Positions 3,001 through 6,000 of a stretch of 64,000 bases of DNA are shown here, piece after piece. Source of the DNA: a virus (taxonomy: Duplodnaviria; Heunggongvirae; Uroviricota; Caudoviricetes). How positions within the stretch are numbered: the stretch's first letter is position 1; each line of letters begins with the position of its first letter. Made by a program: the position numbers. The stretch lies in IMG/VR virus record IMGVR_UViG_2541047712_000002; one strand, 5' to 3'.

Positions 3001-6000
3001 CTACCGGACAACCAACCTAACTTTCACAGGCAATCCGAAAACATTCATACGCGCGATACCCACGACACGCCATTACCCAAACAGCGAAGAAACACCTGAA
3101 CCGCTGAAACCCCAACGAAGCCTGTAACCGCAAGGTTTCTCTCAATCCCAAAAGACACGAAACATAACAATCACGGGAAACGCCATTACCCAATACACGA
3201 ATAACTACAAAAGCCTTTCACACTCCAGACAAACAACTCAAACACAATAACGAAAGCAATCGCCCACCTGCCATTACTCCATAGACGGAGAAGAACAATC
3301 ACCAAAACGACGAGAACACCCCATAGAAGAACCACCGCAAAACGAACGAAACCACATACACCGACAGAGAAAACAACACACCCAATTCACCAACAGAATT
3401 AGTCGCTGTATAGAACGTTCTGGAAGGAGTGAGCATTAACGCCTATAGAGAGGTTGAGACAGATAAAACACGAAGAAAACACAACATGTATAGCGAAGAA
3501 GCCAGGTATGTATAAGTGGGGAGGGAAGGAGGGGTGTCGCCTCCTTTTTCGTATTTATTCAACTCCTGATTTTATCCCCCGTAACACCCCTACGGTCAGC
3601 CTTCGGTCCATACAGGGAAAAGGCTGCATCCCGCTACAGAAACGGCTGGGTTGCCTTCGGGGAACGGCTGGAGGTTTTCAGGGAAACGGTCGAGTTGCCT
3701 GTGTGGATTTCGGGAGAAGGCTCGATGCCGGTTCAGGAACGGTGGCGTACCGGTATAGCGAGAGGGAGAGTTGCGGCTACCCACCTGTAATGTGCGGGAA
3801 GAAGAGAGGCGCTCACGTGCAGGCGGACTTGCTTACCGCTGGATTCCCTCTGAATGCCCAGCTACAGCGTAATTGTGCCAGACAGCCAACGGGTCACAAT
3901 CGATTTCAGTAGGTTTTCGGGGAGAGGATTATTCTGCCCACCAGCCACTTTCGGCCACTAAATCAGAATAATGTAAAAAGTGTACTCGGTACTGAACCTG
4001 AAAACTCACTGCCAAAACCACATTCACCGGAATAAAATCCTTTTTCGCCTGTGCGTTATTGCGATAATAACGCCAACAAGAAAACATGTTGTTTAAGGAT
4101 TGCTTTATGTTTGCAAATATCGACATCAACCAAATCAAGAAATTGACTCAAAAAGAGTTTGACCAGTTCTATGAGCTGGAAGGTTGGTCTTCCACTCTGA
4201 TCAATTCGCGGTGGGTGCTTGAGCTGATGACTCGTGATGACGCACCTGCTTTGATGATTTGCGACATGGGTGAAGATGCTGACTTTATGGATATGAGCGA
4301 ATTTTGTGTGGACACATACAACCGCAGCCAGAAGTACTACTTCACATGCGATAGCGAGAATGATGTTATTTCTAAGGTCTATCTTCACCTTGTCCAGCAT
4401 TGGGACGTTCAGGAGTTTCTTGAAGTATTCGAGTAAACCTAACCAAAGCCAGCAATGCTGGCTTAATTTCTCTATAGCCGCAGGGAAGAACCTGCATATC
4501 GCTCATGCACCTGATCATTATGCTTTGTAGCCGTTTTCTTATTGGTATTATTTACGCCATTGAGAAAACAAGTTGTTTACGGAGTTGTGATGAAAAAATC
4601 ATTGGTTCTTGGTCTGGACAAAGACCAGAAGAGAAAAGAGAAGCCTGCGCTGGTTGCTCAATTAACTTTGCTGGACATCGTTGCCAATGGAACCTCTATT
4701 CGTCTGTTCCGTGAAACAGCGGTGTCTTTCGATAAAAACACCTTTACTCGTTATGTAATGAATGTTCGTCGCCAGCGTGGAAAAGGCTGGATGGCATTTC
4801 AAAGAATGTGGCCGGAACATCAGCTCGAACTGGCCTTGATGGAAGTTAACCGCGTGGCCCAGCAAGAAATTCAGAGAGCATCAGTGATGGCAATAGCCTG
4901 ATAATGTGCAAGTGGTAATTAGTCGACAGTACGACAGCCCCGCCATCCTTACGGGGCTTTTTTGTATTGTAAGTACATACTTACGATCATAGAATATAAA
5001 AATAACCAAAACACTACGGAGAGTGAAATGACCGTTAAACGCGAAAAACTGACAGTTGATGTTTACTATGCCTCTGAAACCGCCGAAGGTAAGAATGTGG
5101 CAAAAATCACCGTTGTTACGTACAACACCGAAACTGGTGCCGAAGTCCAGGCCAGTACGATCGTGCGTAAAGGTGATGCCTCCGGCGGCGAGTACGCGAC
5201 TCAATACCAGTCCATTCTCGATGCAACTGACCCGCTGCTGCTGAAAATCGAGAACTACTTCCGCCAGGTTGATGAAGAGGTGTTTGAAACCATGATGAAT
5301 ATGGTTAACACCGTATTCGCCTCCAGCCTGAACACCAGCACCACCTGGATTGGCCAGTACGGTCTGCGCATTACCTCTGGCATTCCTGCCGACACCTTAA
5401 TCCCTGAAAGCGTATTCGCTTAATCCTCTTTAAATGGCGCGCAAACCGCGCCATTTTATTATGCCCGATAACAATTTGTTTTCTACCTTATCTGATTTGT
5501 GAAAATGATTTCACTGAAGCAACTTAATAAGGAAACCATCATGGGACTTGATATCTATATCGAGACACAGCCTAAAAACGATCTGAATAACGAGGCATCC
5601 AGAAAGCAGGTTGCTTACTTCCGTAAGTTCAATGCGCTCGTTGGGTGGATGGAGCGCAACGTAGGTGAAGTCGAAAATTGTGAGCTTTTAGAATTAACGA
5701 TGAATGACATTTGTTTTCTGAAGGCTCATTTGATGCACATAAACGAAAGTAATTGCGAAGAGTACTTGCCTACCCGGGAAGGTTTTTTCTTCGGCAGTCA
5801 GGAGTACGATGAAGGTTACTGGCATGATGTGGGGGAGTTGAAAGAGCTTGTGGAAGACCTGATCAGGAACCACGACTTTCACAATAACAGACTGACGTTC
5901 TGCGCCTGGTGGTAAATATGGGCGATTTCAAGAAACGTCTGAAGGAGAGAGCCGAGATGGTCAGAAAGCAAAACGCCTCTTCTGTCATCAGATACGCAAG

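Follow-up and report, generated by a model that had tools for sequence, protein, structure and literature searches.

Two conserved direct-repeat arrays bracketing a small-gene module in an SSU5-like phage-plasmid

Iterons of theta plasmids and phage-plasmids, such as those of P1 (oriR and incA), F and RepFIB, are co-oriented direct repeats at a spacing of about 22 bp, in two groups that bracket a short gene module. Iterons vary in number by whole units, and so do centromere repeats. The centromeres of type Ib-like partition systems are also arrays of short direct repeats, and dispersed centromere sites are found in the phage-plasmid N15 and, likewise, as the omega sites of pSM19035. Here we describe two arrays of direct repeats in a 64,000-nucleotide (nt) stretch of viral DNA (IMG/VR record IMGVR_UViG_2541047712_000002; hereafter, the window), which is part of an SSU5-like phage-plasmid of about 110 kb. 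The arrays resemble theta-plasmid iterons in their orientation and period, in bracketing a short gene module, in changing copy number by whole units and in having a core that is conserved across relatives. They differ from them in that conservation is limited to about 11 of the 22 bp, no Rep gene lies beside them, and neither a DnaA box nor an AT-rich region accompanies them, while the element's own RepA iterons have another sequence and lie at another locus. The two arrays are real, and together they form a strongly conserved cis element in a phage-plasmid family that is widespread. Judging from their sequence, they may be arrays of DNA sites that are bound by one element-encoded protein and possibly serve lytic replication or its control, a reading that we hold tentatively.

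Repeat arrays and their conservation

The octamer GRAACGGY occurs 12 times on the + strand of the window (at 1742, 3639, 3661, 3683, 3736, 6764, 6812, 6845, 6867, 29320, 46240 and 48797) and once on the − strand. Eight of the 12 + strand copies fall into two clusters (3639/3661/3683/3736 and 6764/6812/6845/6867). In 100 second-order Markov simulations the expected number was 4.9 (standard deviation 2.1), and no simulation placed more than two copies within 120 nt, as against four observed, twice. The two clusters of direct repeats proposed in a first-pass annotation of this DNA are therefore real. The four sequences that it quoted for cluster 1 are exact, and the starts that it gave for cluster 2 (6757, 6813, 6848 and 6872) are up to 7 nt off the true ones. 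Neither the window nor the other 81 kb of a plasmid that is 98.6% identical contains a third cluster.

Each array is made of the motif GGGAAACGG, repeated mostly 22 bases apart. Its units conform to the consensus C(A/G)GGGAAA(C/A)GG, and behind each comes a variable spacer rich in pyrimidines. When units are defined by the looser core GRAAMGG, cluster 1 has six of them. Cluster 2 is best described as three canonical units and two degenerate ones, because the copy at 6764 belongs to a terminator hairpin at 6751–6779, in whose loop and 3' arm it lies; its motif is lost in the Klebsiella relatives. The repeat units are as follows.

3613–3760, + strand: cluster 1, six co-oriented units, each with a C(A/G)GGGAAAMGG core and a variable spacer of 11–20 nt
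3617, 3639, 3661, 3683, 3714 and 3736, + strand: cores of cluster 1, that at 3714 being degenerate (GAGAAGG), at a spacing of 22, 22, 22, 31 and 22
6798–6920, + strand: cluster 2, with canonical cores at 6812, 6845 and 6867 at a spacing of 33 and 22
6798 and 6903, + strand: degenerate copies of cluster 2, CAGGGAAAT and CGGGAAGCTGG, respectively
4471–4503, + strand: a single extra unit, TCTATAGCCGCAGGGAAGAACCTGCATATCGCT, after a terminator hairpin at 4446–4464, in this lineage only

The element TCTATAGCC..GCAGGGAA, which had been placed beside each cluster, is instead common to cluster 2 (6778–6805) and the single-unit site at 4471–4503; it does not adjoin cluster 1.

Conservation was assessed in 77 IMG/VR loci, collected via the neighboring protein of 160 amino acids (aa), and in 12 GenBank relatives. 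Nearly all of these approximately 90 relatives have the two arrays, always on the sense strand and with the same spacing, and the relatives come from Escherichia, Klebsiella, Enterobacter, Salmonella (pHCM2, SSU5) and Citrobacter. The concern raised in the first-pass annotation, that the repeats might not be conserved in related elements, can thus be put aside: sequence, number, orientation and spacing are kept across five genera. The non-coding bases 3100–4100 match 718 plasmid records from Klebsiella, Escherichia, Enterobacter, Salmonella, Citrobacter and Cronobacter, and for 40 of the 42 PLSDB plasmid records listed, no coding sequence (CDS) lies beneath the match in a gene table that is partial.

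Across 90 loci, neighboring copies were 22 nt apart in 333 out of 518 cases, and distances of 31 nt (47 cases), 33 nt (38), 34 nt (37) and 48 nt (36) followed. The last of these separates the hairpin copy from the first true unit, and the distances of 22, 31 and 33/34 nt are near two or three turns of B-DNA. The spacing of cluster 1 is identical in the Escherichia, Enterobacter, Salmonella and Citrobacter relatives, and the Klebsiella relatives have four units at 22 nt. In cluster 2, a spacing of 33/34 and then 22 nt is retained in nearly all relatives. Between deep lineages the motif columns are 82–88% identical, compared with 54–60% in the spacers, with zero indels inside the array. Among close relatives, unit number differs through the loss of whole units (deletions of 22 or 44 nt), and 1-nt indels are rare. 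The arrays are kept in elements whose neighboring protein is only 51–70% identical; in the most divergent of these (51%), both the motif and the overall layout persist.

In some phage records, CDSs are annotated across the array (SSU5_108–110 in NC_018843, and CYRAN_104). These CDSs are probably spurious. A coding reading (CYRAN_104, 3511–3915 in OV696614; open reading frame (ORF) 3454–3912) was rejected on account of unit-length and 1-nt indels, of a terminator inside the ORF and of the lack of a listed CDS beneath most PLSDB plasmid matches, and we consider the arrays to be non-coding since 1-nt and 22-nt indels occur among close relatives. In a pattern scan of viral contigs, the matches were mostly to the same family and to unrelated iteron arrays; in the scan of genome contigs, chance matches predominated among the matches listed. 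The literature searched held no description of these arrays or of cis-acting sites of SSU5 or pHCM2.

Hairpins, operators and the genes between the arrays

The surroundings of the two arrays comprise the following features.

2889–2903: palindromic operator of the GAAAAyAAGTTGTTT type, at the head of the A+C-rich region
2905–3440, + strand: A+C-rich, G/T-poor untranslated region (A 0.40, C 0.32, G 0.14, T 0.14)
3069, 3182 and 3270, + strand: GCCATTACYC repeats (GCCATTACYC...ACGGAGAAGAAC) within the A+C-rich region
3523–3550, + strand: terminator-like hairpin followed by TTTTT, 65 nt upstream of cluster 1
3551–3612, + strand: conserved block between the hairpin and cluster 1, CGTATTTATTCAAnTCCTGATTTTATCCCCCGTAAC...CCTTCGG
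4080–6247, + strand: small-gene module between the arrays, with operators at 4080, 4564, 5467 and 6231
4590–4901, + strand: basic protein of 103 aa, between the arrays (isoelectric point about 10.6 for the longer ORF), a candidate binder by position only
6266–6748, + strand: conserved protein of 160 aa, whose stop codon is followed by the hairpin and then by cluster 2
6751–6779, + strand: terminator-type hairpin directly 3' of the stop codon of the 160-aa gene (6746–6748), with a fold of −16.5 kcal/mol
8859–9380, − strand: FljA-family gene (PF03614, E 1.4e-68), 2 kb from cluster 2, a candidate RNA-level binder
1223–1290, 2889–2903, 4080–4094, 4564–4580, 5467–5483, 6231–6247, 11511–11525, 16470–16511, 44730–44746 and 47957–47973: sites of the operator GAAAACAAnTTGTTT

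Terminator-like hairpins had been reported beside both clusters, and they are indeed there, upstream in each case (3523–3550 and 6751–6779). The first has weaker counterparts at the same place in two relatives (L007 and L010). In the second, 95.7% of cells from 11 lineages are paired, and changes among G-U, A-U and G-C pairs are one-sided, which points to a hairpin in + strand RNA that ends the mRNA of the 160-aa gene. The DNA between hairpin and array showed no sigma-70-like promoter.

Upstream of cluster 1, every lineage has an operator at a distance of 730–820 nt and an A+C-rich untranslated stretch of 540–650 nt (L010 4640–5180; L334 300–1270). Long ORFs in this region are artefacts that arise from its low T content. 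Even the most divergent relative retains the order of operator, A+C-rich untranslated stretch, hairpin, array and next operator.

The operator GAAAACAAnTTGTTT is found 21 times in the window, compared with 1.46 expected. It precedes the small early genes, the helicase gene, a terminase-region gene, parA and the DnaB-like gene, a distribution consistent with one global regulator, and the matches look like the dispersed site set of such a protein. C1 of P1 is a global regulator with dispersed operators. The operator is not described in the literature searched. About five small genes make up the module between the arrays (phrogs 7645, 5125, 2473, 7971 and 1641), each behind an operator; being under the global operator, the module would be switched on at prophage induction.

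The proteins neighboring the arrays have no sequence matches in Pfam, NCBIfam, PADLOC or PDB. The fold of the basic 103-aa protein gave weak, non-specific matches only, and the 160-aa protein gave a confident model with no PDB fold match. The protein encoded at 47198–47947, which the first-pass annotation had put forward for binding assays, belongs to no recognisable DNA-binding family.

Around cluster 2, two inward-facing Chi octamers, at 6785–6792 (−) and 6909–6916 (+), form a 9-bp inverted repeat. A stem formed by them around the cluster was rejected, both sides being without covariation in the relatives. Another Chi octamer lies at 3938–3945 (−), and in total there are 14 in the 64 kb (10 on the + strand and 4 on the −), compared with about one per strand expected from length alone. 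Past cluster 2, the convergent intergenic region holds a perfect 16-bp palindrome, AATCACATATGTGATT, at 7004–7019, with further TGTGA/TCACA repeats behind it (the whole spanning 7004–7060), beside several bidirectional terminators at 7046–7360.

Possible functions of the arrays

Under our tentative reading, the arrays would be cis-acting DNA sites: rows of an approximately 11-bp core, GGGAAA(C/A)GG, set mostly two helical turns apart, on which one sequence-specific, element-encoded protein would load side by side, unit by unit. The terminator hairpins upstream would hold the arrays clear of transcription; their position, together with the lack of a promoter between hairpin and array, suits sites that are shielded in this way. 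The arrays would bracket a small-gene module controlled by the global operator, and the binder may be encoded within it. We favor as their role a second replicon or a site for replication control in the lytic cycle, since the layout of sites, genes and again sites matches that of iteron-controlled replicons (P1 oriR-repA-incA). If the arrays are a lytic or secondary origin, this would explain the rise in copy number on induction.

Several features point to DNA: clustering far beyond chance, a conserved core with free spacers, changes by whole units, helical distances and no signal of RNA structure. The iteron-like form noted in the first-pass annotation also stands, as these are direct repeats at the classic 22-bp iteron period. 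Arrays of 22 bp with a similar core (GGAAACGGCAnnATTGCC) appear to be origin iterons inside initiator-like genes of other phage contigs. These arrays can show only what origin furniture is typical, because the search pattern selected for exactly such arrays. Compared with lambda-type origin iterons, the arrays described here share the 22-bp period, and their core, GAAACGGC-N6-GCC, resembles that of the arrays in other phage contigs. The latter lie inside an ORF of 330–374 aa and have palindromic units that are near-identical over 22 bp, whereas our arrays are non-coding and their spacers differ. Four unrelated IMG/VR contigs carry near-identical 22-bp repeats, GGAAACGGCAnnATTGCCGAAT (L190 10123–11244, L098 11644–12648, L150 4369–5358 and L139 2726–3850); there the repeats are inside an ORF of 330–374 aa, one with a Phg_2220_C domain, in the lambda-O arrangement of iterons within the initiator gene.

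A number of results weigh against a DNA array that serves replication. No enclosed protein has a family match, and no initiator, helicase-loader or partition gene adjoins the arrays. There is no DnaA box (up to one mismatch) in 2800–4200 or 6600–7400, no AT-rich unwinding stretch beside the arrays (the highest AT content, 75%, is about 500 bp off), no GATC cluster near them and no turn in GC skew at them, the skew tracking gene orientation. In the most divergent relative, the spacing is 28/24/34 nt, without helical phasing. In both arrays and in every relative, all copies are co-oriented with local transcription (835 matches on the + strand vs 240 on the − strand over 907 kb), and cluster 1 lies within a long untranslated stretch downstream of an operator-type promoter.

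The last three of these points would agree with arrays that act as RNA. The transcribed GGGAAACGG units would then serve as the target of, or a decoy for, an RNA-binding protein, several copies of which they would bind. Cluster 1 would be the 3' part of an untranslated early transcript of about 1 kb, running from an operator-controlled promoter through the A+C-rich region, and cluster 2 would be an extended 3' untranslated region. The candidate proteins are the FljA-family protein of the element and host CsrA. FljA represses fliC by binding its mRNA leader, and CsrA recognizes GGA. A transcript of this kind would fit the retention of the whole layout, from operator to array, in the most divergent relative. 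GGA is enriched 3–4 fold, with a density of 0.045–0.056 per nt in the arrays vs 0.0135 in the whole window. The 3' halves of the spacers, rich in pyrimidines, are partly complementary to the purine-rich core. The FljA-family gene, close to cluster 2, is kept in all relatives examined, Klebsiella elements included; K. pneumoniae is normally non-flagellate. A further point is a 12-nt sequence of cluster 2, TGAGCCGACGGG at 6834–6845, which is identical to part of the E. coli K-12 fliC leader; the window has no other 12-nt match to that leader. However, this match is a lead only: it was found post hoc, it occurs in the E. coli lineage alone, and the window contains a better gapped local match.

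Against action as RNA, terminator hairpins stand ahead of both arrays, one of them well conserved, with no promoter found between. A stable RNA structure was not supported: single-sequence folding of cluster 1 gave z-scores of −0.06 and +0.31, and the covariation term of RNAalifold was only −2.3 kcal/mol. No Rfam family matched at the gathering threshold or even at E ≤ 5. Hairpins predicted from individual units in the arrays are weak, vary in register and are in slight excess to the same extent on the + and − strands. Moreover, some units (CAGAAACGG) are without GGA, and the spacing is stricter than expected of CsrB-type sponge RNAs. We regard an RNA-level element as the main rival reading, though a less likely one. 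If the arrays did act as an RNA decoy, they would represent a new kind of phage-plasmid regulator.

Two described classes of RNA deserve comparison. Like the sponge RNAs CsrB and RsmZ, the arrays have many close GGA-containing units (C(A/G)GGGAA) on one strand; unlike them, they have no Rfam match and no detected promoter of their own, their GGA is not kept within predicted loops, their spacing is strict, and some units are without GGA. With the antitoxin repeats of type III toxin-antitoxin systems (ToxI-like), the arrays share tandem short repeats by a terminator and small genes. Here, however, the units are of 22 nt rather than 34–45 nt, and the terminator comes before the repeats, not after. 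Among the neighboring proteins, no match to a ToxN/AbiQ-like protein or to a defense or toxin family was found.

A more specific form of the RNA alternative is unlikely in our view. It holds that the arrays and the A+C-rich leader form a long non-coding RNA of SSU5-like phage-plasmids, made once the global repressor lifts and capturing the FljA-family protein or CsrA. Such an RNA would tie phage induction to the control of host or element translation, and the 12-nt identity with the fliC leader, seen in the E. coli lineage, would be a case of target mimicry.

We also considered dispersed accessory centromere or partition sites for the ParA-like/RHH system of the element. Its locus is as follows.

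44780–45807: type Ib-like par operon, encoding a ParA-like protein of 222 aa (phrog_164; 44780–45448), then a protein of 119 aa (45448–45807)

The 119-aa protein has a basic tail and an RHH-like C-terminus. The operon is followed by a terminator and then by 21-bp repeats, TTAAAAACATACT..., at 45881–45926, which could be its centromere. The presence of such an operon, the nature of the centromeres in systems of this type, and the conservation and shared orientation of both arrays would all agree with partition sites, and so would the likeness to centromere arrays of types Ib and II (parC, parH, omega sites and the dispersed sites of N15), which are also short direct repeats, in more than one array, between genes. 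Unlike those, however, the arrays are 38–41 kb away from the par operon. GRAACGG is absent from the par promoter (44150–44800) and from the region downstream (45780–45960), even though centromere-binding proteins usually autoregulate through the same motif, and the operon has 21-bp repeats of its own. The partition role suggested in the first-pass annotation is therefore improbable, and the arrays are probably not the partition site.

It is very improbable that the arrays have no specific function, as a decaying tandem duplication or a passively carried by-product of terminator-proximal DNA composition. No binder or phenotype is known, and unit number varies between relatives, as such a history would allow; but the core is far better conserved than the spacers, spacing and orientation are kept in five genera while the neighboring protein diverges, and two separate arrays are retained in parallel.

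The first-pass annotation stated that no origin had been assigned in this element and offered the arrays as one. In close relatives, an IncFIB repA lies about 35 kb from the arrays, beyond the window (in NZ_CP017847, repA is at 87428–88483 and the arrays are at 52 kb and 48.6 kb). In pEcoFMU073332c (98.6% identity across the query), more than 15 copies of the iteron AWCCACTRTAGAGAG, at a 21-bp spacing, flank repA together with sites like DnaA boxes. These RepA iterons share nothing with GGGAAACGG, and their pattern is not enriched in the window (3 matches vs 3.45 expected). On these sequences, the arrays are not the RepA plasmid origin: repA is distant, its iterons are different, and no DnaA box lies alongside the arrays. 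A lone near-iteron, AACGCCTATAGAGAG, was seen at 3438–3452, with two mismatches to AWCCACTRTAGAGAG, and TATAG(A/C) motifs occur at 3409, 3444, 3489, 3754, 4473, 6780 and 6889. That the arrays are extra RepA sites, either belonging to the plasmid origin or controlling copy number through handcuffing, would agree with their classic iteron period, the near-iteron and the recurrence of TATAG motifs near them, but is extremely improbable given the different sequence of the true iterons, their lack of enrichment in the window and the distance of repA, and was rejected. Readings as sigma-54, ECF sigma, LexA, ops/RfaH, boxB or CRISPR-repeat sequences fitted poorly, by eye, to their consensus sequences and were also rejected.

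Phased arrays that lie apart from both the RepA origin and the par operon would imply a missing binding protein and a function in replication, switching or maintenance.

The element and its relatives

Bases 3000–7500 are 97.7% identical, over their full length, to Escherichia phage Cyrano (pLF82). Within the same bases there are partial matches of about 80–82% to Klebsiella phage-plasmids and a short piece that matches Salmonella phage SSU5. The window encodes terminase, portal, capsid and tail proteins, a DnaB-like helicase, primase and ligase, and has 3 tRNA genes. Cyrano is a plasmid prophage with about 5.5 copies and is induced by ciprofloxacin (PMC9928086). Homologs also appear in distant relatives from Xenorhabdus, Morganella and Pectobacterium. 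The SSU5-like phage-plasmids are widespread, including pHCM2 of Salmonella Typhi, pLF82/Cyrano of E. coli LF82 and many Klebsiella and Enterobacter plasmids, some of which bear resistance genes.

At its left end, the window begins inside metG, one of a divergent apbC(mrp)-metG pair on the element (window 1–1140, plus the upstream part in relatives; L008 14322–17613). The arrangement of these neighbors, which is that of the E. coli chromosome, suggests a captured host locus. At 13163–16078, directly upstream of the terminase region, lie genes for two tandem ParB_N-domain proteins, then one for an ABC-type ATPase and a second gene (PHROGs: ABC ATP-binding subunit); partition, packaging or defense are candidate roles of these proteins.

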